The notes beneath the pieces are model-generated. The model saw only the letters and a list, made by a program, of their open reading frames with translations, was not told the origin of the DNA and did no database searches. Positions 22,812 to 37,377 of a DNA stretch of 64,000 bases are shown here, one piece after another (the first letter of the stretch is position 1; the number at the start of each line of letters is the position of its first letter). A program made the translations under genes and the position numbers. The stretch is from a phage, in assembly GCA_015370545.1 (NCBI GenBank), contig GCA_015370545.1_3932.1; one strand, given 5' to 3'.

Positions 22812-22815
22812 AAGT

Positions 22816-23155: not shown

Positions 23156-23163
23156 TAAAGTAC

Positions 23164-23245
23164 TTTACAGGGGGCTTAAAAGCTGATATCTTAAGCCCCA
23201 GATAAAGAGCTTTACCACTCAATCCTTAAACTAGGAGATTCAAAA
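23164..23245 (+). promoter_or_regulatory. type B cassette
   Basis: same architecture as 22816-22897. Confidence 0.55.
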
Positions 23246-23758
23246 ATGAAAACTGTAGAAGCTACCTTTGAAGTTGTAAAAGAAAAATTTTCCATCATTT
23301 ACGAAGCTGTTAATTGCTTTGAAGCAAGCCATAACCTTGATAATTGGGAGTTTACAGATGACCATCAAGGCGGCGTGACTATTAAAAACCCCAACTGTCA
23401 GCGTAATGATTTTAAATATGCAATCCCTTTACATTACAGCCTTAAACAGCTTTCAAGTGACTATGCAAAACAAGGCCGGGAAAATCCATCAAAAGAGGCT
23501 TACATAAGCTTACAGAAAGAACTAGAAAGAGATTTAGAGGCTTCAGAATACAACCTTGCCGCGAAAGTTGTCGATGCAAATGGTCAAACAATTTTAGATA
23601 GTTTTTATATTGGTTACGCTTTCGATTGGTGCTATAGTGACGGCGATGATTTAGAGGATAGACTAAAAGAAGAGGTGAGCAATTCAGACGCAGAATCTGA
23701 AGTATTAGAACGCTTGGAAGCATTAAAAGATTCAGTGATGAATATCTTTAAGAACTAA
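23246..23758 (+). CDS. hypothetical protein (cassette gene 3)
   Basis: 170-aa ORF behind type B element. Confidence 0.5.
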   Translation: MKTVEATFEVVKEKFSIIYEAVNCFEASHNLDNWEFTDDHQGGVTIKNPNCQRNDFKYAIPLHYSLKQLSSDYAKQGRENPSKEAYISLQKELERDLEASEYNLAAKVVDANGQTILDSFYIGYAFDWCYSDGDDLEDRLKEEVSNSDAESEVLERLEALKDSVMNIFKN

Positions 23759-23767
23759 ATAGATTTC

Positions 23768-23845
23768 TTTACACGGGGCTATCAAGCTGATAAGATAGCC
23801 CCAGATAAAGAGATTTATCAACTATCCTAAACTGGAGATTCAAAA
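23768..23845 (+). promoter_or_regulatory. type B cassette
   Basis: TTTACA, hairpin GGGGCTAT...ATAGCCCC, conserved SD. Confidence 0.55.
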
Positions 23846-24142
23846 ATGAAATTATCAAATAAAGTCCGTGAAAATCTAAGCAAGTTACTCAACAAAATTG
23901 ATTTTATCGAGACATCAAGGAATAGTCATGATGTTATGGAATGGTTACACGGAAAAATCAAAGGCCGTCGTGTAGTGATTTGCTTATGGAATAGTTGCAG
24001 GGAATATAAAAAACCTGTATTACAAGTCAATATCTATGATGATACTTTTAAAAGCCCTGTAAAGTCTAAAAGTGATTTATTAGAATCCTATGAGATAACT
24101 GTAAATGGCAAAGTATCAAGTAAAGAGGAAACACCATGTTAA
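23846..24142 (+). CDS. hypothetical small protein (cassette gene 4)
   Basis: 98-aa ORF behind type B element. Confidence 0.5.
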   Translation: MKLSNKVRENLSKLLNKIDFIETSRNSHDVMEWLHGKIKGRRVVICLWNSCREYKKPVLQVNIYDDTFKSPVKSKSDLLESYEITVNGKVSSKEETPC

Positions 24143-24468
24143 TGACTGGTATCACTGCAATCATTGCCATTTTCGCGCTATATAAGGCATATAAAGCCTA
24201 TAATCTAGCAAATAAGGCAATCACACAGCAGGTTAGCAATAGCCTTGTAGAAAGCTTTCTAGGGCGTCTCAGTGATGAGCAAATAAAGCGGTTAGAAATG
24301 AGCTTCAGATTCAAAGCGAAAACCTATCAGATAAGTGACATCTTCAAGGATGATTTCCAGTTAGTCGATGATTATAATTCTCTGATAAATGCTTTAAATA
24401 TCAGTGACTTAAAAGACTACTACGCTGTAATTGTTCAAGAGTTGAGCAAACGAAAACAAAACTGTTGA
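24136..24468 (+). CDS. hypothetical small protein with N-terminal hydrophobic helix (cassette gene 5)
   Basis: 110 aa; start overlaps upstream stop, no own cassette element. Confidence 0.45.
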   Translation: MLMTGITAIIAIFALYKAYKAYNLANKAITQQVSNSLVESFLGRLSDEQIKRLEMSFRFKAKTYQISDIFKDDFQLVDDYNSLINALNISDLKDYYAVIVQELSKRKQNC

Positions 24469-24557
24469 CACTGATTTTTAGATAGATTAAATTACACATC
24501 AACGGGGAGGGAACAACCTTCCCACTAAATAAAGTCCTTAAACTAGGAGATTCTAAA
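24465..24557 (+). promoter_or_regulatory. type A cassette
   Basis: TTGACA-17-TAAATT, hairpin GGGGAGGG-AACAA-CCTTCCC, conserved SD. Confidence 0.6.
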
Positions 24558-24830
24558 ATGTATACTACTAACAATGGCCTCACTTTGAACGTCACACTAC
24601 GTCACTATGTAGATGGTGTCATGCACTTTGAAGATTTACAAGCTGAACAACATATCTTAGATTGGCAAGTCGCAGGACTCCAAAAAACTGCTACGGGATA
24701 CGGTAAAAAGATTCCAACTAGTTGGAAAGTTCACTATGAAGGACGTTTGCGCAGAATTTATCAAGATGTGCAAAGCAATAGCGCATCGAGTTACATTATA
24801 GTAAAAGGTGAAAAACTGCATTTAGTATAA
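24558..24830 (+). CDS. hypothetical small protein (cassette gene 6)
   Basis: 90-aa ORF behind type A element. Confidence 0.5.
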   Translation: MYTTNNGLTLNVTLRHYVDGVMHFEDLQAEQHILDWQVAGLQKTATGYGKKIPTSWKVHYEGRLRRIYQDVQSNSASSYIIVKGEKLHLV

Positions 24831-24835
24831 AGTAC

Positions 24836-24915
24836 TTTACATGGGGTTTAAAAGTTGGTATCTTAAGCCCCAGATAAAGAGCTTTACCCCTAAATCCTAA
24901 ATTGGAGATTCAAAA
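24836..24915 (+). promoter_or_regulatory. type B cassette
   Basis: TTTACA, hairpin GGGGTTTA...TAAGCCCC, conserved SD. Confidence 0.55.
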
Positions 24916-25320
24916 ATGGCTATTAATAATCGTGAGTTATCAATCTTAAAAGCACGTTTAACCGTTAATCGAATCAATGTTATCACGTCATCAGCACCAG
25001 ACGAGACATTACACAACATTATCGGGAAGATTCAAGGTGTTATCTTAGACGTTGAGAATGTAAAAAACTCATTAGCAGACGTTGCAGCAGGTGTTACACT
25101 AGACGGCGCACAATATGAAATGATTGACATGTTAGGCAAATCAAAGGTTATGAATAAAGAGTTAGACTTAAAAATGTTTCGATTTGCCGTGAAAGTATGG
25201 CTATCTGTCGAGTATGATGCTAATTTTGCAATTGCTGATTTCTTTGCCACTTGGTTGCAACGTAACTTAACAAATCATGATTTTCGTGATATCTGTGATG
25301 CAATTTACGCAGAACTTTAA
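24916..25320 (+). CDS. hypothetical protein (cassette gene 7)
   Basis: 134-aa ORF behind type B element. Confidence 0.5.
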   Translation: MAINNRELSILKARLTVNRINVITSSAPDETLHNIIGKIQGVILDVENVKNSLADVAAGVTLDGAQYEMIDMLGKSKVMNKELDLKMFRFAVKVWLSVEYDANFAIADFFATWLQRNLTNHDFRDICDAIYAEL

Positions 25321-25328
25321 AAATTTTA

Positions 25329-25420
25329 TTGACACTGATTTTTAGATAGACTAAATTACACATCAACGGGGAGGGAACAACCTTCCCACTAAATAAAGTC
25401 CTTAAACTAGGAGATTCAAA
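25329..25420 (+). promoter_or_regulatory. type A cassette
   Basis: near-identical to 24465-24557. Confidence 0.6.
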
Positions 25421-25963
25421 ATGAAATGCTTTCACGGTACTACTCAAGAAAACTTTATCAACCTGATTAATAACGGTGATAAACCATCAGGTGTATGGAA
25501 TTGTTCGGATATGGACGGCAATTTTTACGTGTACCCAGAAAATAAACTCTATGGTGATGATGAGGAAGAGATAGCATCGGAAGGTATCCAGCAAGCTCTA
25601 GGAAATGCCACTATCACGGCAGCTTTTCAGATGAAAACTCAAAATATTGTTATCTTAGAACTTGACATTCCAGAGGATGAGCTAAATGATGATTATTCTT
25701 GTGATAACATGTCAAATATAGCAAGCTTTACAGAGTACTTTGATGTAAATTGGATTAAAAAGGTCTATACAACAGAGTTCAACGCTATGTATTCACCTTT
25801 TTGTCTCCCTTCACTGGATAACCCAAATTTGAATTATCTTGATGAAACATTGGAGCTACTTGCTAAAAGTATCCAACAATCCGACAGTATTCAGGTTTTT
25901 TGTGACATCATGGATACACTGACAGAAAACATTGTAGAGAGTGATTTAAAGGTCTTTTTCTAA
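25421..25963 (+). CDS. hypothetical acidic protein (cassette gene 8)
   Basis: 180-aa ORF behind type A element. Confidence 0.5.
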   Translation: MKCFHGTTQENFINLINNGDKPSGVWNCSDMDGNFYVYPENKLYGDDEEEIASEGIQQALGNATITAAFQMKTQNIVILELDIPEDELNDDYSCDNMSNIASFTEYFDVNWIKKVYTTEFNAMYSPFCLPSLDNPNLNYLDETLELLAKSIQQSDSIQVFCDIMDTLTENIVESDLKVFF

Positions 25964-26029
25964 AAACCTATACATTCACCTTATAAACACTGATTAACCC
26001 CTTACAGGGGCTTTTAGAGGGCTTAAATC

Positions 26030-26263
26030 ATGCTTACAACCATTTATCTCATCCTTTCTATCTGTAACGGTCATTCATGTGACTTTAAAGGGCTTGAAGA
26101 GTTTACAGGAAGTAAAGAAAATGCTATTCAGGTTTGCCAGATAGCAAGACAAGACTATCCCGCCAGTGACGACATTCAATGCTACTTTAAGACAGAAGAT
26201 GAAGACGGCATCTATTTTGACAGCGTTGACGGTCAATATGAAATTATCATTGAAAAAGACTAG
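26030..26263 (+). CDS. hypothetical small protein (cassette gene 9)
   Basis: 77-aa ORF; own SD after short hairpin CCCCTT-ACA-GGGGC. Confidence 0.45.
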   Translation: MLTTIYLILSICNGHSCDFKGLEEFTGSKENAIQVCQIARQDYPASDDIQCYFKTEDEDGIYFDSVDGQYEIIIEKD

Positions 26264-26354
26264 ACAAGCCTGATAAAAGTCTGTAAATTGTCAATCAACG
26301 GGGAGGGAATGACCTTCCCCACTAAATAAAGTCCTTAAACTAGGAGATTCAAAA
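26261..26354 (+). promoter_or_regulatory. type A cassette
   Basis: TAGACA-17-TAAATT, hairpin GGGGAGGG-AATGA-CCTTCCCC, conserved SD. Confidence 0.55.
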
Positions 26355-26696
26355 ATGGCTTATGTAACCGTAATTACCGATAAAGCTGGCTCATCTTGGT
26401 CAACTCAGGTTAGTGATAAGATGTCGCCTATGCAGTGCCTAAAATACTTTGAGCAGTGGAACAAAGGCGAGGATGTAAGCCCCTTTCAAGTGATGCAAAT
26501 CATCCATACAGATAACGAAGGGAATAAAACGACCTTGAACAGTGAATACTACGCAAGCCGTTTTGAAACGAGAAGTAAAACAATGAAGCTTTTACGTGAA
26601 TCCGGCTATTCTCATATTGCCGCGCTAATCTGGGATGACCTGCTAAAAAGCCAGCGTATCAGCTATGTAAAACCTGAAAAAATATTCATCAGTTAA
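26355..26696 (+). CDS. hypothetical protein (cassette gene 10)
   Basis: 113-aa ORF behind type A element. Confidence 0.5.
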   Translation: MAYVTVITDKAGSSWSTQVSDKMSPMQCLKYFEQWNKGEDVSPFQVMQIIHTDNEGNKTTLNSEYYASRFETRSKTMKLLRESGYSHIAALIWDDLLKSQRISYVKPEKIFIS

Positions 26697-26825
26697 TCAA
26701 TAACTTACAAAAAACTTTTAAAAAAGTGTTGACAATACCCCTTGACATTGGTAACTTTGTTCGAGGGGGTTTATCTAAAAGGGATTCACTTAATAGATTC
26801 TTTATAGATAAACTTAAAAAATTGC

Positions 26826-26917
26826 TTGCAAAGGCAAATCAAAACAAGTAAATTACTAATCAACGGGAAGGGATTAACCTTCCCACTAAGTAAAGTCCTT
26901 AAACTAGGAGATTCAAA
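26826..26917 (+). promoter_or_regulatory. type A cassette
   Basis: TTGCAA-17-TAAATT, hairpin GGGAAGGG-ATTAA-CCTTCCC (compensatory change), conserved SD. Confidence 0.55.
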
Positions 26918-27448
26918 ATGAACAAGTTTCAAGCTATCAACTATATTCGCTCATCCAACGTTATGACTAAGCCCGTTAAAGATACCTTCGAATTTCGTTG
27001 CAACGGTGTACACTTTGCAACTATCACTAAATCAGAAAACGGGGCTTATTATATACATCGTCGTAATGCCTCTACTGTTGTAGTCTCTCACTTTATGCAA
27101 GCTGTAGCAGAACTGTTACCGCTATTCTTAGGTATTTACTTAGATGAGTGCAAAAACGTTCGCAACCACGTTAAAGACCTTTTAAATGGTTATAAAATGG
27201 CTTATGAACGTTCTATCAAGAATCTTAACAAGTTCTATAAAGCCCCTGAAAATACTGTTTCAATGGCTTACAGTGTAAGCGGTGAGTTGGTTAGCCTCTT
27301 TGAAGTGGAAGAAATCGCGTTGCATGACTTACGCCCTAGCGGTTACTCTAAGACACTAGAGGAAGGTTTAACGTTCAATATCAAGAACTTAGAAAAAACT
27401 TTAAAAGATATTGAAAAAGATATTGACGAGACAATCAAAAATCTGTAA
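26918..27448 (+). CDS. hypothetical protein (cassette gene 11)
   Basis: 176-aa ORF behind type A element. Confidence 0.5.
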   Translation: MNKFQAINYIRSSNVMTKPVKDTFEFRCNGVHFATITKSENGAYYIHRRNASTVVVSHFMQAVAELLPLFLGIYLDECKNVRNHVKDLLNGYKMAYERSIKNLNKFYKAPENTVSMAYSVSGELVSLFEVEEIALHDLRPSGYSKTLEEGLTFNIKNLEKTLKDIEKDIDETIKNL

Positions 27449-27510
27449 ATTGTCAATCAACGGGGGATAACCTCCCCCACTAAACAAAATCCTAAACTGG
27501 AGTTATCAAG
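27423..27510 (+). promoter_or_regulatory. type A cassette
   Basis: TTGACG-17-TAAATT overlapping the upstream gene's 3' end; hairpin GGGGGA-TAACC-TCCCCC (compensatory variant). Confidence 0.55.
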
Positions 27511-27774
27511 ATGGAAAACGTAGAATTAACCACACTTTTACAAATTGCAACCGACAAAGAAGATGTAGCATTATTCCACCGTATCGAAAGCGATTTGTTC
27601 AATGGTGAAATCATTAAAGAATCTTACGAAGTTGTCGGATTCAAAGATGGTAAAGCATTTGGCTTTTTTGACCTCGACAAAAGCAAAGCGGTTACAATGT
27701 ACGATGTTCTATCTTGTGAAATTCTGACAAAATACAACGAAAAAAGGCTTGCAACCTACGCCAATATGCAGTAA
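27511..27774 (+). CDS. hypothetical small protein (cassette gene 12)
   Basis: 87-aa ORF behind type A element. Confidence 0.5.
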   Translation: MENVELTTLLQIATDKEDVALFHRIESDLFNGEIIKESYEVVGFKDGKAFGFFDLDKSKAVTMYDVLSCEILTKYNEKRLATYANMQ

Positions 27775-27841
27775 ATTACTAATCAACGGGGAGGGAATGA
27801 CCTTCCCACTAAACAAAGTCCTAAACTGGAGAATCTAAATT
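27749..27841 (+). promoter_or_regulatory. type A cassette
   Basis: TTGCAA-17-TAAATT, hairpin GGGGAGGG-AATGA-CCTTCCC, conserved SD. Confidence 0.55.
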
Positions 27842-28090
27842 ATGTCAACTATCCGCGTAACTGTTAATGCTTATGGCTGCCACAAACTTGATGCAAAATT
27901 CGATATCGGTGGAACAGATAACACCTTTGACCTTATCAAAATGCTGATTCAGCAGGTGATACCAGATTATAACCCTACTGATGACTTCTGGAAAGATGCC
28001 GTAAAAGAAGCCATAAACGAGGAATCTCACTACCATTATTGGGGTGACTTGATTGTCTCTCTATACTACAGCAAACAAGGCTACAACTAA
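27842..28090 (+). CDS. hypothetical small protein (cassette gene 13)
   Basis: 82-aa ORF behind type A element. Confidence 0.5.
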   Translation: MSTIRVTVNAYGCHKLDAKFDIGGTDNTFDLIKMLIQQVIPDYNPTDDFWKDAVKEAINEESHYHYWGDLIVSLYYSKQGYN

Positions 28091-28128
28091 TCGACGCAAC
28101 GGGGCTAAATAGCCCCAGATACCTTTAC

Positions 28129-28152
28129 AGCCCCTTAAATGGGGCTTTTTTA
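28129..28152 (+). terminator. intrinsic terminator closing the cassette array
   Basis: AGCCCC-TTAAAT-GGGGCT hairpin followed by TTTTTT. Confidence 0.7.
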
Positions 28153-29756
28153 CGTCTATCGAATCCTTATACAATCCCTTTCCCTTTCCTTTCTAGAATC
28201 TTATCAGACCTTAAAAAGCAATAACTCTATAGTCTACTCTATAACCTCTTATCAAATCAACTTAAATATAAGCCAATAACCCCAGAAAGGGGATGGCCCA
28301 TTAAAACGCTCTATAAAGCTCTATAACAGCCTTATCAACCTAACTTAAGCAATCATATTAACCCACTCTAAAAAGCCCTTTATAGAGCTTCCCAGAGCCT
28401 TAAAAGAATCTTATAAGGGTGAAAGCTTATAGGCTGGCTAGTATCTTGTGAATAACTAAACAATCCCCTTGATAGTCACTAAAAAGCATGTTATAGGGGC
28501 TATAAAGTTACTTCAAAGTAACGTAAAAAAGGCTATAAAGTTACGTAAATGCTAGCCCCCTTAACATTTTCTTAACAATTTCTTAACAATCCCTACATAG
28601 TTATGCTTGTTAGAGACTTGTTAGCCCCTTGTTAAATCTCTGTTACAACCATGTAAAAGCCTTGTAAGAACCTTTGACATAGCCTTAAAAGCCCTGTAAA
28701 GCCCTATAAAGAGCTATCCATACAGTTGGGCTGTAGTTACTAGGGAGAGACTTAAAAGGGGCTATACAGAGCTATAGAGGGCTTTTAAGAGGTATGTTTA
28801 AAGAATCACTAAGAATCAAAGGGAACGATAAGAAAAGAGATAGTGACCATGTTAATAGCTTGTTAAAAAGATTAAACACTTGTTAGAAACTTGTTAATTA
28901 TCCCTACAAAATAACTCTTTAAAATTAACTTGTTAGCTCTTGTTAGTCATCTGTTAAGACTCTGTAAAGACTATTCAGCACTTGTTAGAAAACTGTTAAG
29001 TTCTTGTTAGTTCTGTTAAGAAACTGTTAAGACCTTTGGAGAGTTGTTAAGAGCTTGAGAGAGTTGTTAAGAGATTGTTAAGGATATTTTAAAATTCTGC
29101 AAAGTACTTGTAAGGGAGCTGTTAAGGGCTACCAAGCAGATATACATCTTCTACAGATATTTTTCAGTTCCTTCAAAGACCCTAAAAAATGACTTGATAG
29201 CCCTATTTTATAAAAATTTTAAAATTCTGAATAATTACCTAGACAGTCTTTTAAAAATACAGGTAGAAACAGGCTTATAAGATACCTTGTTAGTACCGTG
29301 TTAGACCTTGTGAGATAAGGTCTGTGAAGATATTCCTGTTAAGTTTGTTAAAACAGTCTATATAGAGGCTTAGTAGTACCTAGTGAACATCTATAGAGGG
29401 TATCATAGCTAACCTAGAGATTAAGAGGTGTATAGGGGCTTCTAAGAGGGTATAGAGAGATGGTTAAGGTGATTGTATAGGTTGTTAAGAAGGATTGTTA
29501 GAAGAGTGTTTAGAGGGCTATTTAGAAGGGTTATACAGAGGGCTATTAAGACCACTAGATAGTTACTAAGATACTATATAGTACTATATAACTATATAGA
29601 GAGTAAGATTAAGAAGGTTGTTAAGAAGGATAGATATCTTATTCACATATGATGGTGACCCAGAGGTTGGGACAACCGATAAAATTTTATAAAAATATAA
29701 ATTTCGTAAATTTTACTCAATAAAAAGCCCCCAATTAAGGAGGCTCTTAAGATATT
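28153..29756. repeat. ORF-free region dense in short direct repeats (iteron-like)
   Basis: no ORF of 60 aa or more in 1.6 kb; roughly 25-30 copies by eye of CTTGTTAG / CTGTTAAG / GTTGTTAAGA, plus GCTATAAAG, CCTTAAAAG and TTTTAAAATTCTG repeats. Confidence 0.7.
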
Positions 29757-30305
29757 TTAAATCAGTGTTTCCAGAACTGTTTTTAGTGATGACTTGGTTG
29801 TCTGATAAAAATGAGTAAAGCCGTTGTTGTTATCAAATACCTGCATCATGATATCATCTCCCTTGATTGGGTACACTCGGATATCATAGTGAAAACCATT
29901 AAAGACACAAGAGCCATTACAGAATGCACTAAAGTCATCCACTGAGATATACTCTTCATGTCCTGTGATTTTTATACAGATACCTTTACTCGGTCTCTTA
30001 GGATTAATATCTTCCATCACAGACATATTCTGTCCGCCAAGAGATACCATAGTGACCACTTTACGGTTCTTCTGTCTAAAGTACATTTTAACTTTCTGCA
30101 AAGTGTCTTCATAGAACGGATAAGACTTCTCTACAAAGATTCCTTCAAGTGGCTCTTTACCATTTTCAACTTCTCTGTTATGCCGTACTGCAAAGATAAT
30201 TTGTTCGAACCAGTCAAGATTTTCTTCGGAGAGTGCTTCTCGAATATCCTTCCAGTCAAGGACTAGATAGTTACCTTCAACTTCTTTTAAGTTATCTTTT
30301 TCCAT
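29757..30305 (-). CDS. hypothetical protein
   Basis: start set at internal Met (MEKDNL) to avoid a 62-nt overlap; alternative start at 30380. Confidence 0.4.
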   Translation of the reverse strand: MEKDNLKEVEGNYLVLDWKDIREALSEENLDWFEQIIFAVRHNREVENGKEPLEGIFVEKSYPFYEDTLQKVKMYFRQKNRKVVTMVSLGGQNMSVMEDINPKRPSKGICIKITGHEEYISVDDFSAFCNGSCVFNGFHYDIRVYPIKGDDIMMQVFDNNNGFTHFYQTTKSSLKTVLETLI

Positions 30306-30318
30306 GTTTATCACACCA

Positions 30319-30783
30319 TTATCGTAAAACTTGATATTCTGGTACTGCGAATTTATTACTGTTGTTCTTGATGAGGTCATCTTCTGAAACTAAAAATGTA
30401 ATCCCACATAAGTGTCTGTAACGACTATCATACTCGAATATCTTAAACAGATATTTACCATCATGATAAACCTGTTGCACTTCACCTTCTGCAACAATCT
30501 CGCCTGTAATAAAATTTTTTAGTTTATACACATTACCAACTTTAGGTACTGTTTTCATCTCAGGCTCTTTTAGTGCTACATCTATTTTTGCATCACTGAG
30601 TAGATGAGAACTCTCAAAAGCTACGTGTTTCATATAAGCTTCTGAACATTCCCAGATAAAACAATGTACAAGAACCTTAGCAGCATGTCTTGAACAGTTC
30701 AACTTATCACAAATTTCTGTGTACATCTCATCTTTAGTTGAGTTGTCAAGCATTGCTTTTCGAACTGTTTCTTTAATTTTCAT
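30319..30783 (-). CDS. hypothetical protein
   Basis: 154-aa ORF. Confidence 0.4.
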   Translation of the reverse strand: MKIKETVRKAMLDNSTKDEMYTEICDKLNCSRHAAKVLVHCFIWECSEAYMKHVAFESSHLLSDAKIDVALKEPEMKTVPKVGNVYKLKNFITGEIVAEGEVQQVYHDGKYLFKIFEYDSRYRHLCGITFLVSEDDLIKNNSNKFAVPEYQVLR

Positions 30784-31195
30784 AAGCTCTCCGAATAACC
30801 CTATTAAGCATCTCTAAAGTCAGCTTTCCAGATTCTAAATGCGGCATAACAAGCTTTAAAGCTTTTTCAACATCATGCACAATATCAATTATACCTTCTT
30901 CATAGGCTTCTACGAGGATATCTTTTACACCAATATAGCCTTCATTGATAAGGATTTGCATATCAAAATCTTCTGATTGCTTGTTTAACTTACCTCTCCA
31001 ATACCCATCAGCATTAAAAGATATCACTTCACACTCTTTAAAATCCATATCATCTGCATGGAATGGAGTAATTATTGTGCATTGGATTGGGTACTCTACA
31101 CCAGTGGTGTCAACATCAAAGACCTTCACAGAAGTAAGTGGTTTCTTTGTTTTAGAGCAGTAAACTGTCAATCTTTTACCAATAAGCTCTTTCAT
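30773..31195 (-). CDS. hypothetical protein
   Basis: 140-aa ORF. Confidence 0.4.
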   Translation of the reverse strand: MKELIGKRLTVYCSKTKKPLTSVKVFDVDTTGVEYPIQCTIITPFHADDMDFKECEVISFNADGYWRGKLNKQSEDFDMQILINEGYIGVKDILVEAYEEGIIDIVHDVEKALKLVMPHLESGKLTLEMLNRVIRRAYEN

Positions 31196-31248
31196 TTCGC
31201 TACCTTCTAAGTTTCTACAAAGGGGCTATCAAGTAACCCCTCAAGTTA

Positions 31249-31473
31249 TTACTCAGACTTTTCAGTCTTCTTGTCGGATTTCTTACTAGTCTTCTTCTCA
31301 GCTTTCTGCTCAGGCTCCTTCTCAGAAGTTGCCTTAATAACCATATCAAGAAGCTCTGATAAGTCACTCTTCAGCAAAGTAACAGGCTGCTCATTGTAGA
31401 AGTTTTTGTCAAGATAAACTTTGAACTCTTCTATAGAAGGAAATCCAAAAATTGGTACAGGTGTCTTAATCAT
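31249..31473 (-). CDS. hypothetical protein with Lys-rich C-terminus
   Basis: 74-aa ORF. Confidence 0.35.
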   Translation of the reverse strand: MIKTPVPIFGFPSIEEFKVYLDKNFYNEQPVTLLKSDLSELLDMVIKATSEKEPEQKAEKKTSKKSDKKTEKSE

Positions 31474-31549
31474 TACTTAGTTTCTCCATAGGCATCTTTC
31501 AAGATTGCCTTGTTAATCATTTCAGCGATTGCAAAACGAACACATACAG

Positions 31550-32083
31550 CTATAATTGTAGGTTGCATTCTTTACTTACCTCTTCAAGTTTAACCTCAGA
31601 ATCCTTAAGTCGCTTCTTATGAACTCTGAATCTTAGTAGTGAGATGATGATACCAACTAAAGGAGCAGCATACAAGTACCAAACATCATATACCTTTGCA
31701 GTAATCTGTGTAATTGTTAAATCTTGAGCTATGTAGCTGATTGCTGATACGGCTAGTAATGTTGCTAAGAAGAAAACCAGTATCATAGCAATATTCAGAC
31801 AACCTCTGGCATGGTATTCATTCTTAATGCACTTATTCTTCTCTTCAACAACTCTGTTGTAGTCATTTGTAAAGTCTCTGTAGAAAGCTTTCAAGTATTC
31901 TTGACTGTAGCCTTCAAAGCAACCTGTACCGTACCAATAATCACCACCGAAATGTGCTATGATACCAGTATCTCCGTTTGGTTTTGTTACTCTTAGGGAG
32001 ACATGATGACCAGTCTTCTGGTAATCTATCTTGTATCTTTCTTCGTAAATCATTTTCCAATCCCTCTCAATCGTTTGTTCCAC
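31550..32083 (-). CDS. membrane protein
   Basis: 177 aa; two hydrophobic helices in the C-terminal half. Confidence 0.4.
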   Translation of the reverse strand: MEQTIERDWKMIYEERYKIDYQKTGHHVSLRVTKPNGDTGIIAHFGGDYWYGTGCFEGYSQEYLKAFYRDFTNDYNRVVEEKNKCIKNEYHARGCLNIAMILVFFLATLLAVSAISYIAQDLTITQITAKVYDVWYLYAAPLVGIIISLLRFRVHKKRLKDSEVKLEEVSKECNLQL

Positions 32084-32268
32084 TCAAGGTCAACAAGTCT
32101 TTGTAGTACTTTGCCTCTAGGTGTTACACCTTTTAAATCTGCATCGTAACAATGGTAAAAGTCACCTTCAGCGTGTTTACCATAGCATTTTCTGATATTC
32201 TGGCTTCTGCGATACTGTTCTAACAAGGACAGTTTGTAGTAATCTTCAACTGTAGTTAGTCTTTTCAT
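32050..32268 (-). CDS. hypothetical protein
   Basis: 72-aa ORF. Confidence 0.3.
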   Translation of the reverse strand: MKRLTTVEDYYKLSLLEQYRRSQNIRKCYGKHAEGDFYHCYDADLKGVTPRGKVLQRLVDLEWNKRLRGIGK

Positions 32269-32351
32269 TCTTTCACCGTAGTGTTTGTCTAGAAACTAAA
32301 AAGGGAACTACCTCTCGATAGCTCCCATCATAATCAATGTTGTATACTCGG

Positions 32352-32933
32352 TCAAGAGTATTTTTTAGGCAGTAATGCACTGCGCTTGTTGCTCTCTTCA
32401 CTCAATAGTGCGATAAATTCATCACCTTTGCCTTTCCACGGGCTAAATGTAGGGATGTGTTCTCTGATAGCCTCAATCACTGTCTTCAGTGCGTTATTCT
32501 TTAACCACCAATCAGATACTGCCGATGCTACAACATAGTAAGCACCATCATCTGTGAAGATTGGCTCAGAGATACATGGTGAAATCATGGTAGTGATGAT
32601 TGAGCCATTATTCATGTAATATGTTCTTTTTTCAACCTTATCAAGAAGCTTATGAAGGTCTGCAAAGAGACTCACCACCTCTTTATGGTCAATATCTTTT
32701 TCAAGATTTGCTCTGTACTTTAATAGTGCAGCATCAACCTCTTTATCATTGAATTTGAAGTACTGGACTTCTTCATTCACACATACACTGATATTGTTGG
32801 TGTTTATCGTCAATTTGCACAGTTTGACTGGAGAATTGATGTTGGTTTGAAAAAGTGCTACACAGCCTTCTACATTTCCGAAATGTTTTACTAATGTAAC
32901 TTCTGGTTGGATATGCTCATGTTCTTCTGACAT
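32352..32933 (-). CDS. hypothetical protein
   Basis: 193-aa ORF. Confidence 0.4.
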   Translation of the reverse strand: MSEEHEHIQPEVTLVKHFGNVEGCVALFQTNINSPVKLCKLTINTNNISVCVNEEVQYFKFNDKEVDAALLKYRANLEKDIDHKEVVSLFADLHKLLDKVEKRTYYMNNGSIITTMISPCISEPIFTDDGAYYVVASAVSDWWLKNNALKTVIEAIREHIPTFSPWKGKGDEFIALLSEESNKRSALLPKKYS

Positions 32934-33277
32934 TACAGTTTCCTCATTAAATACTTTTTAAGTTGTGTGTTAGGTTTCTCAAAAACTTCTATAGAAGATA
33001 TCTTAACAGACTCACCACGCATACCAGTATGTTTGAATATGTAGTACTCTAGCATCCCTATGTACTTTGCTGGTAAGTCATGCTTGACATATACCGTCAC
33101 AGAATCTTCAAACTCAACAACCTTTGTACCATCTTTGTAGTTAAACTCTTTAGGATGGTTGTAGTTGTCTATGTCATACATTAAAAAGAGTCTTTTACGT
33201 TGTAAGTCAAGCTTATTTGTTAAAGACTCTTTGATATCTGAGAAGTTTTTGTATACTGTGACATGGAGCTTACTCAT
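32933..33277 (-). CDS. hypothetical protein
   Basis: 114-aa ORF. Confidence 0.4.
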   Translation of the reverse strand: MSKLHVTVYKNFSDIKESLTNKLDLQRKRLFLMYDIDNYNHPKEFNYKDGTKVVEFEDSVTVYVKHDLPAKYIGMLEYYIFKHTGMRGESVKISSIEVFEKPNTQLKKYLMRKL

Positions 33278-33563
33278 CGTTAAACTCTCTGACGAAGAAA
33301 TAGTTGACTTTGTTATTACCTACCATAAGGTCAAAGCAGGTATTTTCAAAAGGCTTGTTGTAGGCATCATATGAAGTATATGTATCAGCTACTTGTTTAG
33401 TGTTGAGCTTTTTACTTGATGGATTTAAGAGGCCACCATACAGCTTCTTGATAGCCTCTTCTACAACAGACCAGATAATTTCGTCAGTAATTTCTTCGTA
33501 CAGGTCAAGTTCACGCTCTAGTGAGAAGTCACAAATAGGGAAAACAACCTGTACTTTACTCAT
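33270..33563 (-). CDS. hypothetical protein
   Basis: 97-aa ORF. Confidence 0.4.
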   Translation of the reverse strand: MSKVQVVFPICDFSLERELDLYEEITDEIIWSVVEEAIKKLYGGLLNPSSKKLNTKQVADTYTSYDAYNKPFENTCFDLMVGNNKVNYFFVREFNDE

Positions 33564-33961
33564 TAACGGATAACCTGTGAGACTTGAATTGCTTCGGTTA
33601 CTGACAAGTCACCTACTTTCTCTTCTTTGATAAAGGTGAAGGTAAGTTCAACAGGTTCTTGCTTTTCTTGCTCAACTGGAATGCCATTAAGCTCATCACG
33701 GATTGATTGAGTTGTCCAGTCTTCTCCACCATCTGGATAATGGATGGCGTAAAGAGGGAACTCCATATCATACCAGCCAAATACAGGGCAGCCATCTGCA
33801 TCATCTCGCATCCTACGTAGTGTGCTACCTGAGCCTGTAAAACGAAGGCAGATATTACCATTACACTCAAAGATTACTGCATCAGCAAGACCAGCGTCTT
33901 CACGGCCATCATGCCCAAACGTGTCAACTTTTACTTGAATATCTCTAACATCTTTATTCAT
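33563..33961 (-). CDS. hypothetical protein
   Basis: 132-aa ORF. Confidence 0.4.
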   Translation of the reverse strand: MNKDVRDIQVKVDTFGHDGREDAGLADAVIFECNGNICLRFTGSGSTLRRMRDDADGCPVFGWYDMEFPLYAIHYPDGGEDWTTQSIRDELNGIPVEQEKQEPVELTFTFIKEEKVGDLSVTEAIQVSQVIR

Positions 33962-34352
33962 AAAAACCTCTCTCTGCTTGTTCGATTTTTGCTCTTAAAG
34001 TTTCGCAATGCTGTAAATGGTAGTTAGCTTCTTGTTCATGTGTTGCTAACTGCCTTTCAAGAACAGTTTTATAGTAACCTGCAAGTTGCTCTTTTGTCAA
34101 TGGGTGCTCTGAAATAATATCAAGTCCACTTTCACCAAGAGGATTGAATTGTCCATACTCATTGACATTGTAAGTCTCAAACTTGAACATACCATTGTTC
34201 ACAGACTCAATAGGTGACAGTTCAACAAGCTCTACAGTAAACCGTGTATACACCTTGTCGCCTCTTGAAACTACATTGTTTCCAATGATGCGTACAAGCG
34301 AACCATTACGAGTGTATTTAAAAGTCCCAAAATCACTAGCCCAAAGCTTCAT
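33954..34352 (-). CDS. hypothetical protein
   Basis: 132-aa ORF. Confidence 0.4.
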   Translation of the reverse strand: MKLWASDFGTFKYTRNGSLVRIIGNNVVSRGDKVYTRFTVELVELSPIESVNNGMFKFETYNVNEYGQFNPLGESGLDIISEHPLTKEQLAGYYKTVLERQLATHEQEANYHLQHCETLRAKIEQAERGFYE

Positions 34353-34370
34353 AGTTTTCTCCTTAGAAAA

Positions 34371-34394
34371 TAAAAAAGGCTCCCGAAGGAGCCT
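34371..34394 (-). terminator. intrinsic terminator (minus strand)
   Basis: reverse complement reads GGCTCC-TTCG-GGAGCC followed by TTTTTT. Confidence 0.65.
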
Positions 34395-34403
34395 ATGAAG
34401 ATA

Positions 34404-34868
34404 TTACTTTGGATATACACTGTCAAGATAAATGTCAGCTTCCATTCTACGTCTGTTTTTCAGACCGTTTGAAGTGACCTTCTTACCTTTGACTGTAACC
34501 TTGTTCCACCACTGCATAGCTTCTGCACAACCTACCTTATTACCAGCATTGTGGCGCTTGATAAATGTGGAATCCTGCATAGCTGTGATACCGATGTTGT
34601 ATGTTTCACTTACAAGTGCATCGAACTCATTCTGAGTAGTTGGAACCTTGATAGCTTTGTTCACTGCTGCAACAAACTTCTCAACATCCGCGAGAAGATA
34701 CTGTTCAGCTTGTTCAGCGGTGATTTTCATTCCCATCTTAACAGGTTTTCCGTCAATACGGATTGTACCATACCCGATTGTTGGGATTCCGGCAGAGTCT
34801 TCGTAAGCCTCTAACTCCAGACCTTCGAAGAACTTAATAGCTTCTAAACCTTTTCTTGAGAGTTGCAT
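34404..34868 (-). CDS. endolysin, T4-lysozyme-like (GH24)
   Basis: 154 aa; FEGLELEAYEDSAGIPTIGYGT carries the Glu/Asp/Thr triad spacing recalled for T4 lysozyme. Confidence 0.8.
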   Translation of the reverse strand: MQLSRKGLEAIKFFEGLELEAYEDSAGIPTIGYGTIRIDGKPVKMGMKITAEQAEQYLLADVEKFVAAVNKAIKVPTTQNEFDALVSETYNIGITAMQDSTFIKRHNAGNKVGCAEAMQWWNKVTVKGKKVTSNGLKNRRRMEADIYLDSVYPK

Positions 34869-35752
34869 TATGCCTCCCCTGCTGGGTTAACTGTAACTGT
34901 TGCCGCATTAGATGTTACAGAGCCACCTGCACCAGTAACTACACAAGTGTAGCTTCCTGCATCAGAAGCAGTTGCACCTTCTTTGGTGTAAGTTGCAGCA
35001 GTTGCGTCTGGGATGACTTCCTCACCTTTCTTCCACTGATAACCTGTTGCACCAGTTGCAGTCACTGCTAAATTGATGTTTCCACCTTCATTAATGGTCT
35101 GATTAGAAGGTTGCTGTGTAATCACAGGCAGCGCGTTCACAGTAACTGTTGCTGCATCTGAGGTGACACTTGTTCCACCATCTCCAGATACAACACAAGT
35201 GTATGAACCAGCGTCAGAAGGTGCTACGGATTGTTTTGTGTAAGTTGCAGAAGTGGCACTAGAGATGTCCTCACCATCTTTCTTCCACTGATAACCAGTG
35301 GCATTAGATGCAACAACACTCAGAGTAAGAGTTCCACCTTCATTGACTGTTTGGTTTGTTGGTTGCTGAGTGATTGATGGTGGTGTGATGGCATCTTTCA
35401 ACTTAGCATTCAACATTGAGAACGGCTTAACTCTTGCCAACCATTCACAGTAAATTGTGTCAACATCTTTACCGTTGATGATTGCATACTGTAAATCCAT
35501 GAAGAAATCAGCAGTTCTCATCTGTGCACCAACACTGTAAAGGAGTTCATCACTAAAAGGAACTTTGTAGTCTGGTTTGTAGTCAAACTTCTTAACTTCT
35601 GCGATATCAGCTTCAGGCCAATATGAGCTATAGGTGAGTGGTAAAATAGCTTCTTGATATGTTCTAAAATCATATCTCTTACCAGCCTTTACATTTGCGA
35701 TGAAGCCCTTCACAAATTCTTTGAAGTCTGGGTAAGTCTTTGCTTTAATCAT
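34868..35752 (-). CDS. protein with two C-terminal Ig-like domains
   Basis: 294 aa; N-terminal ~130 aa paralogous to 35749-36120; C-terminus has two repeats ITQQP.NQT.NEGG...YQWKK...AGSYTCVV. Confidence 0.55.
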   Translation of the reverse strand: MIKAKTYPDFKEFVKGFIANVKAGKRYDFRTYQEAILPLTYSSYWPEADIAEVKKFDYKPDYKVPFSDELLYSVGAQMRTADFFMDLQYAIINGKDVDTIYCEWLARVKPFSMLNAKLKDAITPPSITQQPTNQTVNEGGTLTLSVVASNATGYQWKKDGEDISSATSATYTKQSVAPSDAGSYTCVVSGDGGTSVTSDAATVTVNALPVITQQPSNQTINEGGNINLAVTATGATGYQWKKGEEVIPDATAATYTKEGATASDAGSYTCVVTGAGGSVTSNAATVTVNPAGEA

Positions 35753-36120
35753 TTCTTTTTAGCCTCTAAACGTGCGTTTAATCTAAAATAGCCTTTATGT
35801 TGTGGAGACACATCACCAACAACGATACCTTCAACTTTATAACCTTTACCGATTACATACTGGATATCCATAAGAAATGTACCAAGTCCTACAATGTGGA
35901 ACATTGGATATAATAACTTATCTGAATCTGGGAGATTAATATCTGGGTTGTAGGTAGGTTGTTTACTAGTAGGTGTAATATCTTCTTCAGGCCATTTACT
36001 TAGTCTCCATGTCAAAGGTGTTGGGATAACATCATTAAGATTGTACCTCCCACCATTCTCCACGGAGCGGATATAGGATTGTAGGAAGCAATAAAAGTCT
36101 TTTGCACTCTTAGCCTTCAT
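35749..36120 (-). CDS. hypothetical protein, paralog of 34868-35752 N-terminal domain
   Basis: 123 aa; shared MKAK..F...Y....GKRY, F.MD.QY.I, LNA.L motifs. Confidence 0.5.
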   Translation of the reverse strand: MKAKSAKDFYCFLQSYIRSVENGGRYNLNDVIPTPLTWRLSKWPEEDITPTSKQPTYNPDINLPDSDKLLYPMFHIVGLGTFLMDIQYVIGKGYKVEGIVVGDVSPQHKGYFRLNARLEAKKK

Positions 36121-36167
36121 TAAATATCCTTATAAATAGATAAAGGGGCGTTAGCCCCTGTTTACAC

Positions 36168-36758
36168 TTAAGCTTTGGTCTTAAGTAGGTTCTTAAGCTT
36201 TTTGAGATTCATGCTCTCATCAAACTTAAAACCAAATCCATTGACATAATCAATGAACTCGGATTTCTTACTAAGTGATAGTGCGTAACTCATATCGAAG
36301 TTATTACTTGTTTCTGCGTCTGGACTAGAGTTCACATCAAATGAAATTTCTGTAGGTTCTTGTTTGCTGCTTCTCATATTATCAATCAATAGACAGGTAT
36401 AGTTTGCCGGATAGAAGTTAACACTCCCATCAACATACCCATACTTATTATTGTGAATGAGGCTGGAAAATACCTTAAGAAATGTTTCTGCGTCGTGGCA
36501 TACAAGTTTGAATTGACTGCATTCACCAAGAGCCACTAAAGAGTAAGGGCTTTCACTATCAATGTCATAATTCGGATTTGATGTTGTAACCGTCACACGC
36601 ATCAGGTTATTGGCGATAGTCTTCTGCTTAAAAGAATTTGGAACATAGTGAAGACCTCTGTCACACTGATTAACTAACTCTTTCAATAGGTCGTTTGCAT
36701 ATGGTGAATTAATTGATACAGAGCCATCACTATTGTAATTAAAACTTACTGTTAACAT
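36168..36758 (-). CDS. hypothetical protein
   Basis: 196-aa ORF. Confidence 0.4.
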   Translation of the reverse strand: MLTVSFNYNSDGSVSINSPYANDLLKELVNQCDRGLHYVPNSFKQKTIANNLMRVTVTTSNPNYDIDSESPYSLVALGECSQFKLVCHDAETFLKVFSSLIHNNKYGYVDGSVNFYPANYTCLLIDNMRSSKQEPTEISFDVNSSPDAETSNNFDMSYALSLSKKSEFIDYVNGFGFKFDESMNLKKLKNLLKTKA

Positions 36759-36985
36759 TTTTCAGTTCTCCTGCGATTTATAATTTTGCTGCAATAGAGA
36801 AACGAAGTAAACTCACTGGAAGAAACCATTAAGTGTTGTTCACTAGATTGAGCCATTGCCCTGAAATACATTCCAGTCAAAGCATCATAGTGACTATTCT
36901 TTCCAATTGAGGTTATATAGCCATGACTCTTTGCAGTTTGATATAAATCTATAATATCTGCGATTTCTAATTGGGAACTACACAT
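36752..36985 (-). CDS. hypothetical protein
   Basis: 77-aa ORF. Confidence 0.3.
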   Translation of the reverse strand: MCSSQLEIADIIDLYQTAKSHGYITSIGKNSHYDALTGMYFRAMAQSSEQHLMVSSSEFTSFLYCSKIINRRRTEKC

Positions 36986-37377
36986 AGATAATCCTCTTGT
37001 CTTCTGTAATTTTGAAAGAACAGGTACAGACCAATTTCAGAGGATGAATAGTAGAGTAACTCTACCCTTTTTGATTCCTTACAGTGATTGGTATTTTTAC
37101 CTTTCTTCGGGTTATTTGATTTTCTCATTAAGTCTCCTTTGTAGAACAAGGCAGACCTACAGCTTTAAGTAAGATGGTACAGTAATCCATACAACAAGTC
37201 AAGAACTATTGCAAGTTAAAAAAGTTGTTGACAAAGTACTTGACAAGGTGTAGGCTTATAAATACTTAGAAGATAACTTAAAAGGTTCCTCTAAAAAGGC
37301 TATTTAAACAGATATCTTTCTGGATATCTATCTTTTATCTTAAAAGCCTTTTAAGAGGTCTTATAAGAGGCATACCA

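Follow-up and report, generated by a model that had tools for sequence, protein, structure and literature searches.

Large lytic phages, such as those of the T4 type, contain hyperplastic, or accessory, regions filled with small non-essential ORFs, and lambdoid phages bear morons, i.e., cassettes composed of a promoter, a gene and a terminator. The system closest to the locus studied here is that of Felix O1, in whose genome Whichard et al. (2010, PMC3185647) distinguished four 'transcriptons', including the genes 40-24 transcripton with its three internal terminators.

The DNA analysed (the window, 64,000 nucleotides of contig GCA_015370545.1_3932.1) belongs to a Felixounavirus showing ~93% nucleotide identity to E. 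coli O157 typing phage 1 and wV8, and ~90% to Felix O1. An unbroken run of minus-strand ORFs spans positions 29757–37149 (7.39 kb) and is flanked by plus-strand genes on both sides, so the leftward block noted in the preliminary description is real. Its gene-for-gene homology with Felix O1 gp24–gp40 in the same order and orientation, the matching terminators t29, t35 and t38, and the four-transcripton description (PMC3185647) together identify this block as the already published genes 40-24 transcripton of Felix O1-type phages, i.e., an ordinary, known architecture, an ancestral fixed arm adjoining the genome end. Both phages also possess the divergent 40/41 region, the flanking non-coding gap and the tRNA array. 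They differ in that the window phage has m03, which Felix O1 does not, and lacks Felix O1 gene 29; m02, m09 and m12 are alleles other than those of Felix O1. We estimate at about 0.8 the probability that the block represents the ancestral left-terminal transcription arm in the Felix O1-type (Ounavirinae) chromosome, built of tandem terminator-bounded segments and comprising a conserved core and a plastic zone.

Instead of the 16 leftward genes counted initially, the block holds 18, namely 17 ORFs of 53–294 aa and one 31-aa ORF; the closest RefSeq relative has 19 CDSs annotated here, one gene more than the window. Gene junctions within the block mostly overlap or abut. The endolysin gene was confirmed (m14, 34404–34868, 154 aa, gp35 in Felix O1 and gp123 in Bas63; PF00959, E = 4.5e-41), and apart from its product and the Ig-domain protein, the block proteins matched solely PHROGs of unknown function. 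Protein annotation of the block and its neighbours revealed no integrase, transposase or homing endonuclease. On the right, the block is followed by the genes for a DUF5681 protein and a DUF2828/DUF7788 (Ro60-like) protein and by 26 tRNA genes. The GC-skew check proposed earlier showed negative skew solely over 30–37 kb of the window.

The left boundary is an ORF-poor, repeat-rich gap of 1.67 kb (28091–29756). This gap, previously described as iteron-rich, is strongly enriched in YTGTTAR words: the word occurs 24 times in the forward and twice in the reverse orientation, vs. 28 and 35 times in the other 62 kb, and TTGTTAG occurs nine times vs. once. All relatives whose locus extends across this site have a gap there (truncated in PC79-13), and YTGTTAR is enriched in all these spanning relatives but P778; an Rfam search with the gap gave no match. 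The rightward early arm ends within the gap at an intrinsic terminator on the plus strand (28129–28146; AGCCCC-TTAAAT-GGGGCT followed by TTTTTT), whose sequence is nearly identical to t23 in Table 2 of the Felix O1 paper. Further inside, positions ~28555–29133 correspond to a direct terminal repeat, i.e., to the physical genome ends, as mapped from two related records rather than from the window phage itself: PP892526 and OR498728 begin at one and the same nucleotide, and each has at its two ends a 100% identical sequence, 581 nt long in the former and 591 nt in the latter. The direct terminal repeat has been stated from PhageTerm (PMC11737134), and its edges coincide with the inverted repeat I1. 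Since the repeat sits in the gap that separates the block from the early genes, the insertion of the block between early and late genes, as originally suggested, results from representing the genome as a circle; within virion DNA, the block forms a left-terminal arm transcribed outward. Downstream of the last leftward gene, the scan revealed one more terminator-like hairpin (29728–29742, minus strand) followed by CTTTTTATTG, which is absent from the Felix O1 Table 2.

At the right boundary, the divergent intergenic control region occupies 37129–37377 (249 nt) if the m19 start codon is the ATG at 37128, in line with the annotation of relatives, and 228 nt with the longer TTG ORF; the region of ~230 bp described earlier is thus present, its length depending on the start codon. 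It shows 99–100% nucleotide identity within the genus and 89–93% in Mooglevirus and Suspvirus, exceeding the flanking genes. A candidate leftward promoter, TTGACT-17-TACCAT (37174–37202, minus strand), was found in the scan as a consensus match only, and none of its bases varies among six phages from two genera. Rightward promoter candidates lie on the plus strand at 37228–37264 and include two invariant TTGACA hexamers (37228–37233 and 37240–37245) and TATAAATA at 37257–37264, the candidate −10 being uncertain; at the equivalent site, Whichard et al. placed the Felix O1 P41 (PMC3185647). The near-invariant leader of the DUF5681 gene (37277–37367, plus strand) bears two palindromes and may form a long hairpin (MFE −28.4 kcal/mol, z = −2.65; one covarying pair, CG/UG/UA). 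Its conservation was sought in phiEa21-4 and P778 and was not found.

Within the block, three hairpins on the minus strand correspond to intrinsic terminators. The t29 equivalent (32303–32326, a 10-bp stem followed by TTTTT; Felix O1 Table 2) is nearly invariant in six phages, and its site is also an indel site, where gene 29 of Felix O1 is present in ~80 records and missing from the window. The t35 equivalent follows the endolysin gene (34377–34394, GGCTCC-TTCG-GGAGCC then TTTTTT); it is kept in Felixounavirus and Mooglevirus, and phiEa21-4 has an analogous hairpin. The t38 equivalent (36144–36159, GGGGC-TAAC-GCCCC; Felix O1 Table 2) is separated from the downstream m16 ATG by only ~24 nt, a distance too short to accommodate a promoter for m16, so this segment would need either read-through or a promoter inside m17. 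Sigma-70-like hexamers directly adjoin two of these terminators, both on the minus strand. Abutting t29 is TTGACC-17-TATGAT (32327–32355), a consensus match only, with TTGAC and TATGAT invariant in Felixounavirus and Mooglevirus. Abutting t35 is TTGACA-17-TATCTT (34398–34426), where a TAnnnT hexamer holds its position in three genera with changed sequence (TATCTT, TAGATT, TATAAT). Terminator-like sites are enriched (15 found vs. 7.2 ± 2.5 expected), while promoter-like matches are no commoner than in shuffled sequence (41 vs. 36.8 ± 6.2), so that conservation is the sole basis of each promoter call; for the two internal candidates, whose −35 hexamers lie in coding sequence, conservation has an alternative cause.

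These data bear on whether the block could be one operon with a single promoter, its internal hairpins being attenuators or RNA-stabilizing elements and the adjoining hexamers chance matches. The divergent region is indeed the sole sizeable intergenic region before the block, most gene junctions are tight, promoter-like matches are not enriched over shuffles, m16 directly follows t38 and needs read-through, and the Felix O1 genes mostly peak together in RT-PCR, at 25 min (PMC3185647). Nevertheless, we find the single-operon explanation unlikely: the three strong, conserved U-tract hairpins match the terminators predicted for Felix O1 and annotated in Mijalis, the TAnnnT by t35 keeps its place across three genera while its sequence changes, and the block genes fall into three RT-PCR classes, with genes 30, 36 and 37 assigned to 60 min and gene 31 to 5 min (PMC3185647). 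These classes are coarse and fit the terminator-defined segments imperfectly: the early gene 31 and the late gene 30 belong to a single segment. The independent regulation proposed at the outset is thus supported at the sequence level, the arm having its own divergent control region and terminators, but not for a single unit, as the three conserved internal terminators predict at least four segments.

The segment between t38 and t35 encodes, besides the endolysin, a protein whose closest known systems are the capsid decoration proteins T4 Hoc, T5 pb10, Bas63 Hex-Dec and Sf14 gp20. This is m15 (34868–35752, minus strand, 294 aa, gp36), a homolog of Bas63 gp124 with two Ig domains. It matched chain S of PDB 9ncf with E = 4e-246, the 460-aa chain having the length of Bas63 gp124; in both proteins, a capsid-binding domain is combined with Ig repeats. 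Cryo-EM located the Bas63 Hex-Dec at the capsid hexamer centres (PMC12609058), and gp36 was detected by MS in Felix O1 virions (PMC3185647). In addition, the Ig region of m15 gave matches (E ~1e-11) to two PDB entries, 5lxk and 8zvi, whose chains bear the name 'Decoration protein'. We conclude that m15 is the Hoc-like decoration protein Hex-Dec, and that its label "tail protein" is wrong. The number of Ig repeats varies: four in Bas63, three in Alf5, 35FD and the 372-aa homolog in PDB 9c2d/9c3a (attributed to Sf14), two in m15, and one in Henu11, PC79-13 and phiEa21-4; in T4 Hoc, the domain order is reversed relative to Hex-Dec (PMC12609058). The adjoining m16 (35749–36120, minus strand, 123 aa, gp37) is 36% identical to the N-terminal non-Ig domain of m15 (aa 1–119, E = 2e-16) and matches residues 3–119 of 9ncf_S (E = 1.7e-12). 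The two had been described as Ig-like paralogs; the paralogy stands, though m16 lacks Ig repeats and represents the capsid-binding domain only. The presence of this extra paralog beside m15 is a difference from the known decoration systems compared.

A comparison across relatives showed that the farther a gene lies from the terminal repeat, the more conserved it tends to be (Spearman rho = 0.87, p = 5e-6). At the amino acid level, m14–m19 share 74–92% identity with Mijalis, vs. 47–69% or absence for m01–m13. The promoter-proximal third, which includes three uncharacterised genes, the capsid-binding-domain paralog, Hex-Dec and the endolysin, is conserved, and the core homologs keep their order in phiEa21-4 and P778. 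Endolysin identity amounts to 86–99% across three genera, falling to 56% in P778 and 46% in phiEa21-4. The product of m17 (36168–36758, 196 aa, gp38) is 77–99% identical across three genera and has homologs in phiEa21-4 (gp39, E = 2e-16) and P778 (ORF017, E = 5e-21); a search for PDB relatives found none. The core also contains m18 (36752–36985, 77 aa, gp39, PHROG 5064; 92–100% in three genera) and the first gene of the arm, m19 (36967–37128, 53 aa, gp40, PHROG 8138), which has an AAGGAG RBS upstream of its ATG and weak matches to P778 ORF019 and phiEa21-4 gp41.

The distal two-thirds consist of small, fast-evolving genes (likewise on the minus strand) with single-gene mosaicism, gain and loss, and one cassette relocation. 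From the terminal side, m01 (29757–30305, 182 aa, gp24, PHROG 4330) is 90–98% identical within the genus and 44–54% in Mooglevirus and Suspvirus, and m02 (30319–30783, 154 aa, gp25, PHROG 4713) forms distinct allele classes (76–97% within the genus). The minority accessory gene m03 (30773–31195, 140 aa) is missing from Bas63, Mooglevirus and Suspvirus as well as Felix O1; it is full-length in only ~30 phage records, and ~67 others retain just its 3′ 140 nt. They are followed by m04 (31249–31473, 74 aa, gp26, Bas63 gp114, PHROG 4457), the 31-aa ORF m05 (31473–31568, read from its translation), at whose site a 90–96 nt CDS is annotated in TP1, Bas63, Alf5, Mijalis and PC79-13, the membrane protein gene m06 (31550–32053, 167 aa, gp27, Bas63 gp116; hydrophobic stretch at aa 88–109, homologs annotated as membrane protein in Felix O1 and Mijalis) and m07 (32050–32268, 72 aa, gp28, PHROG 4459). 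Beyond t29 lie m09 (32352–32933, 193 aa, gp30, PHROG 4109; two allele classes within the genus), m10 (32933–33277, 114 aa, gp31, PHROG 4040), m11 (33270–33563, 97 aa, gp32, PHROG 4385; 70% in Alf5 vs. 95–100% in the remaining genus members), the strongly mosaic m12 (33563–33961, 132 aa, gp33; 68–95% within the genus, with adjoining genes at 96–100%) and m13 (33954–34352, 132 aa, gp34, PHROG 4266; two allele classes, 79–83% and 96–97%). Among phages, the allele classes of m02, m09, m11, m12 and m13 are combined independently of one another. Roughly two-thirds of the Bas63 genes received a non-essential score; g114, g116 and g124 were conditionally important, g116 (the m06 equivalent) being conditionally essential and g114 (the m04 equivalent) more essential on E. 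coli S17-1.

The preliminary description regarded the block as a possibly horizontally exchanged unit. In favour of a discrete 7.4-kb module gained or exchanged as a whole, one could cite its own control region and terminators, the non-coding regions that bracket it, its mostly uncharacterised genes, and the very different size and distal content in phiEa21-4 (~3 kb) and P778 (~12 kb, with TerC, TerD and radical-SAM genes). The synteny check argues strongly against this. Collinearity over at least 80% of window positions 28000–39500, both boundaries included, was found for 197 phage records; position and orientation are constant in every relative inspected (the four Ounavirinae genera Felixounavirus, Mooglevirus, Suspvirus and Kolesnikvirus, plus Yersinia phage P778, which is unclassified), and in ten of ten closer relatives all block genes are on the minus strand and all flank genes on the plus strand. 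A block-wide divergence step matching both boundaries was sought across relatives and was not seen; instead, content varies gene by gene, the far half exchanging single genes with independently assorting alleles. GC, GC3, coding-strand skew and codon usage agree with those of the rest of the genome, genes for mobility are lacking in and beside the block, and one of its 'boundaries' is the genome terminus. Exchange as a unit is therefore largely refuted and highly improbable; the block is not mobile as a whole.

The leftward orientation might alternatively result from the inversion of part of a formerly co-directional early arm. The codon usage (r = 0.92) and evolutionary rate of the distal genes are indeed similar to those of early-arm genes, and the m10-m09-terminator cassette is found in the rightward arm of phiEa21-4, in the other orientation, where the homologs are gp10 (E = 1e-10) and, for m09, gp11 (E = 5e-08). 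We consider such a rearrangement quite improbable: relocation is seen for this two-gene cassette only, coding-strand skew is fully equilibrated, and orientation is constant in all sampled lineages, even in P778 with just 53% identity in the anchor protein, so that any inversion would predate the whole group.

An ancestral terminal arm thus accounts best for the block, and its distal two-thirds resemble the plasticity regions of T4-type phages in their small, apparently dispensable ORFs, which turn over rapidly, shuffle alleles and are polymorphic for presence or absence even between closely related phages. Unlike those regions, the zone contains no homing endonucleases and forms the tail of one transcription arm by the terminal repeat, after conserved structural and lysis genes. 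The cassette that occupies different arms in different genera is moron-like, as may be the terminator-bounded segments with their adjoining promoter-like hexamers; the whole block is no such cassette, and the window phage, unlike lambdoid phages, is virulent.

We propose that in virion DNA the arm begins ~0.6 kb inward of the direct terminal repeat at the left end and would be transcribed outward toward that end from the highly conserved bidirectional control region, common with the rightward DUF5681/Ro60-like/tRNA/structural unit. Four intrinsic terminators would split it into tandem segments: (i) m19–m17; (ii) m16, Hex-Dec and endolysin, for capsid decoration and lysis; (iii) m13–m09; and (iv) m07–m01. 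At the two terminators adjoined by hexamers, upstream transcripts would end and downstream segments re-initiate, which would allow segment-specific levels and times of expression. Segments (i) and (ii) constitute the conserved core retained in all relatives, and segments (iii) and (iv) a plastic zone, whose small accessory genes, for the most part apparently dispensable, evolve via single-gene replacement, gain and loss, and relocation of small cassettes.

A megablast search with the region 28000-39500 retrieved 257 phage records, of which 197 were collinear with 80% or more of the query length. The top matches were E. coli O157 typing phage 1 (TP1) and wV8 at ~93% identity. These matches identify the phage as a Felix O1-like one (Ounavirinae, Felixounavirus). 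The ORF listing and a GC skew check confirmed the uninterrupted minus-strand block with plus-strand flanks reported in the preliminary description, which extends over 29757-37149. The number of its genes, given there as 16, had to be raised to 18 (17 of 53-294 aa and a 31-aa ORF at 31473-31568), with start codons chosen to agree with annotated relatives. We number the genes from m01 (29757) to m19 (37128), the first gene of the leftward arm. The right-hand neighbours of the block encode a DUF5681 protein and a DUF2828/DUF7788 (Ro60-like) protein, and the 26-tRNA array starts at 39412. The only Pfam matches within the block were to the endolysin (m14; PF00959) and to two Ig domains of the 294-aa protein m15, while the remaining proteins matched nothing but PHROGs, all of unknown function.

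Comparison with the literature allowed us to recognize this block. The Felix O1 genome has been divided into four "transcriptons" comprising genes 97-131/1-23, 96-80, 40-24 and 41-79, and its divergent 40/41 junction has been remarked on (Whichard et al. 2010, PMC3185647). Of the 17 block proteins tested, 16 matched the Felix O1 locus with 71-100% identity; these matches keep the gene order and lie on the minus strand, and only m03 has no counterpart. Both loci have the divergent junction with the DUF5681/Ro60-like/tRNA unit, and a non-coding gap closes them at the other end. We conclude that the block belongs to the standard make-up of Felix O1-type genomes and was already published in 2010. 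As to its expression, RT-PCR of Felix O1 assigned gene 31 to 5 min, genes 24-26, 28, 29, 32-35 and 38 to 25 min, and genes 30, 36 and 37 to 60 min (PMC3185647); our literature search for Felixounavirus transcriptome papers found none relevant. The idea of an independently regulated unit is correct in outline and known since 2010, but the block is better seen as several terminator-bounded segments.

The block lies at the same place and in the same orientation in Felixounavirus (TP1, Felix O1, Bas63, Alf5, radambza, 35FD, VpaE1_ev108), Mooglevirus (Mijalis, Henu11), PC79-13 (Suspvirus), phiEa21-4 (Kolesnikvirus) and the unclassified Yersinia phage P778, in which the anchor protein is only 53% identical. 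In a tblastn matrix of the ten closer relatives, matches to block genes were all on the minus strand and those to flank genes all on the plus strand. The length varies from ~3 kb with 9 genes in phiEa21-4 (small ORFs, an m17 homolog, the Ig protein, the endolysin and annotated holins) through 7.4-8 kb in the enterobacterial genera to ~12 kb in P778. Shared even with phiEa21-4 and P778 is a proximal core, next to the divergent region, where m19, m17, the capsid-binding domain of the decoration protein Hex-Dec and the endolysin follow one another in the same order; for m17, no relative was found among solved structures. In the distal arm of P778 (PP693300.1, a record whose taxonomy stops at "Viruses") there are a radical-SAM gene, TerC and two TerD-like genes; such genes are unusual in a virulent myophage related to Ounavirinae.

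The left boundary turned out to be the genome end. The 1.67-kb gap at 28091-29756 is ORF-poor and contains 24 forward YTGTTAR words, with TTGTTAG occurring 9 times in the gap vs. once elsewhere; YTGTTAR is also enriched in the corresponding gaps of Felixounavirus, Mooglevirus and phiEa21-4. Two related, independent GenBank records, PP892526 and OR498728, bear an exact repeat (581 and 591 nt, respectively) at both ends and begin at the identical nucleotide, and this terminal repeat maps to the equivalent position 28555-29133 of the window. Direct terminal repeats were indicated by PhageTerm in the announcement of PP892526 (PMC11737134), and short terminal repeats of Felix O1 were deduced by Whichard et al. 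from the genome size (PMC3185647). The left edge of the repeat is marked by three reverse-orientation words, CTTAACA, 11 bp apart, and the right edge by a dense forward YTGTTAR array with a spacing of often 10-11 bp, the two edges coinciding with inverted repeat I1; these words could be terminase or end-binding sites. The PP892526.1 record is assigned to Tequintavirus (Demerecviridae) in its taxonomy line, and its two 3-kb ends are ~88-90% identical to the window over their length, so that it appears to be misclassified.

Since the terminal repeat sits in the gap, the block is the left-terminal arm of the virion DNA, with transcription predicted to run outward. The right-terminal arm consists of the early genes, which adjoin the block only in circular maps; the apparent insertion of the block between early and late genes results from drawing the genome as a circle. 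A genome map that is opened at rIIA obscures this placement of the block and the early arm at the two physical ends of the virion molecule.

When compared to Mijalis, m14-m19 showed 74-92% identity, and m01-m13 were 47-69% identical or absent. The farther a gene of the block lies from the genome end, the better it tends to be conserved (rho = 0.87, p = 5e-6), and there is a step at the boundary between the endolysin and the terminator t35 (named as in Felix O1). The assumption that both terminal arms diverge toward the genome ends was rejected, as the early arm gave rho = 0.18, p = 0.41. Within the genus, the tblastn matrix showed that allele classes of single genes assort independently. For instance, m09 is 99% identical in TP1 and Bas63 and 82-85% in the other members compared; m12 shows 95% identity in TP1, 87% in VpaE1 and 68-72% in the remaining ones; and m13 falls into two groups, four phages with 96-97% identity and three with 79-83%. 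Full-length m03 is present in only ~30 records, and ~67 more retain just its 3′ end; gene 29 of Felix O1 occurs in ~80 records and is missing from the window. In phiEa21-4, homologs of m10 and m09 reside in the rightward early arm, arranged m10-m09 and followed by a terminator. In no relative did the matrix reveal a divergence step matching both block boundaries.

The composition of the block is native in GC (0.37-0.39), GC3 (0.34), coding-strand GC skew (+0.05 to +0.13) and codon usage (r = 0.81-0.92 vs. other gene classes); the distal genes resemble early genes in codon usage (r = 0.92), and the proximal ones late genes (r = 0.88). Pfam/PHROG searches yielded no integrase, transposase or HNH matches in the block, and the repeats on its left side are part of the genome terminus and therefore do not define an insert. 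A horizontally exchanged unit, which had been suggested as a possibility, is not supported, given the invariant position in all relatives examined, the native composition and the lack of mobility genes and insert-bounding repeats. From the divergence pattern and native composition it follows that exchange proceeds by single genes or small cassettes rather than by the block. We conclude that the block is a terminal arm of ancestral origin and fixed place, in which a conserved core for decoration and lysis is joined to a plastic tail of accessory genes.

Within the core, m15 (34868-35752; Felix O1 gp36) combines a capsid-binding domain with two tandem Ig domains, as expected for a Hoc-like Hex-Dec. 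It matches PDB 9ncf chain S (E=4e-246 over residues 1-290), a 460-aa chain with the length of Bas63 gp124, and also 9c2d/9c3a. In the cryo-EM structure of Bas63, the N-terminal domain of Hex-Dec, called Hoc-like, binds capsid hexamer centres, and the number of Ig repeats is variable (PMC12609058); in Felix O1, gp36 was detected in virions by mass spectrometry (PMC3185647). Since cryo-EM places Hex-Dec on the capsid, the label "tail protein" in many records is wrong, and the Ig protein in those records is the capsid decoration protein Hex-Dec. Among close relatives, Hex-Dec is 204-244, 294, 372-377 or 460 aa long, from which 1 to 4 Ig repeats are inferred. The Ig-like paralogs of the preliminary description correspond to m15 and the adjoining gene m16 (35749-36120; gp37). 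Paralogy is supported by 36% identity, but there is a single Ig protein: the 123-aa m16 product is a paralog of the N-terminal non-Ig domain of m15, matching the Hex-Dec capsid-binding domain without Ig repeats. This gene is conserved in Felixounavirus, Mooglevirus and Suspvirus. In Bas63, Hex-Dec is reported on facet-edge hexamers only, with the other hexamers showing no density for it (PMC12609058).

No holin-endolysin lysis cassette is present in the block, since the overlapping i-spanin/o-spanin pair is located at a distance from the endolysin, within the early arm (19326-19836). Homologs of this pair are gp12/gp13 of phiEa21-4 and the o-spanin of P778, whose gene adjoins the endolysin. 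A holin in the block was considered and rejected, because no homologs of the phiEa21-4 holins were found in the window; a clear hydrophobic segment within the block was seen in m06 only. Lack of a lysis cassette in Felix O1 was noted by Whichard et al. (PMC3185647). In this respect the window differs from phiEa21-4 and P778, where holin or o-spanin genes are annotated downstream of the endolysin. PhageMaP analysis of Bas63 classified about two-thirds of genes as non-essential, assigned greater importance on strain S17-1 to g114, g116 and g124, all of them block genes, and pointed to g123 (endolysin) as a candidate defence trigger and to gp130, the Ro60-like neighbour, as a counter-defence protein (10.1101/2024.10.10.617714).

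At the right boundary, which had been described as a divergent promoter region, conservation of the intergenic DNA (99-100% identity across the genus, 89-93% in Mooglevirus and Suspvirus) exceeds that of the flanking coding DNA. The promoters of the block remain candidates, being consensus matches backed by conservation. The putative leftward promoter TTGACT-17-TACCAT (37202-37174, minus strand) is invariant, as is the whole m19 leader, whose fold was not significant vs. shuffles (z = -1.71). On the plus strand there are two invariant TTGACA hexamers and a likewise invariant leader of ~110 nt with two palindromes, AGATATC..GATATCT and CTTAAAAG-C-CTTTTAAG; words of the latter kind also occur in the terminal gap. 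This DUF5681 leader (37265-37377), almost invariant in three genera, can fold into a long hairpin, modestly better than shuffles (z = -2.65), with one covarying pair among highly similar sequences, and its structure is not kept in phiEa21-4 or P778; the leader may represent an RNA hairpin or a protein-binding site. No known RNA families were found in the gap, block or divergent region at E <= 1. A T4-type late promoter was rejected, as no more than 3 copies of TATAAATA are present in the 64 kb. In the early arm, a sequence of ~60-100 nt recurs in many intergenic spaces (22372, 24488, 25352, 26249, 26817, 27771), seen as multiple blastn matches of one relative's intergenic DNA over 22372-27840; it probably corresponds to the Felix O1 intergenic direct repeats between genes 15/16 and 19/20.

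Inside the block, three minus-strand terminator hairpins have the sequences published for Felix O1: t29 (32326-32303), t35 (34394-34377) and t38 (36159-36144). As t38 lies ~24 nt before the m16 start codon, transcription of the m16 segment would have to run through this terminator. The region is enriched in terminator-like sites (15 vs. 7.2 +/- 2.5 expected) but not in promoter-like ones (41 vs. 36.8 +/- 6.2). Directly upstream of the t35 and t29 hairpins there are sigma-70-like hexamers, and at t35 the TAnnnT hexamer is fixed in position and changes in sequence across three genera. We tentatively suggest, with roughly one chance in four, that t35 and t29 together with the abutting hexamers are composite "stop-and-restart" elements. 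Upstream transcripts would terminate at the hairpin, and new ones would begin a few nucleotides past the adjoining -10, in or at the 5′ arm of that hairpin, thereby either escaping termination or acquiring a stabilising 5′ stem. If so, successive segments of the terminal arm would be insulated from one another, and small accessory cassettes would find a permissive landing zone in the distal, repeat-proximal segments.

The finding serves mostly to clarify that it would be wrong to regard the block as a mobile module or an insertion. Its distal half, next to the terminal repeat, is a natural place to seek dispensable or host-specific accessory genes and a candidate site for payload insertion when engineering these therapeutic and diagnostic phages.
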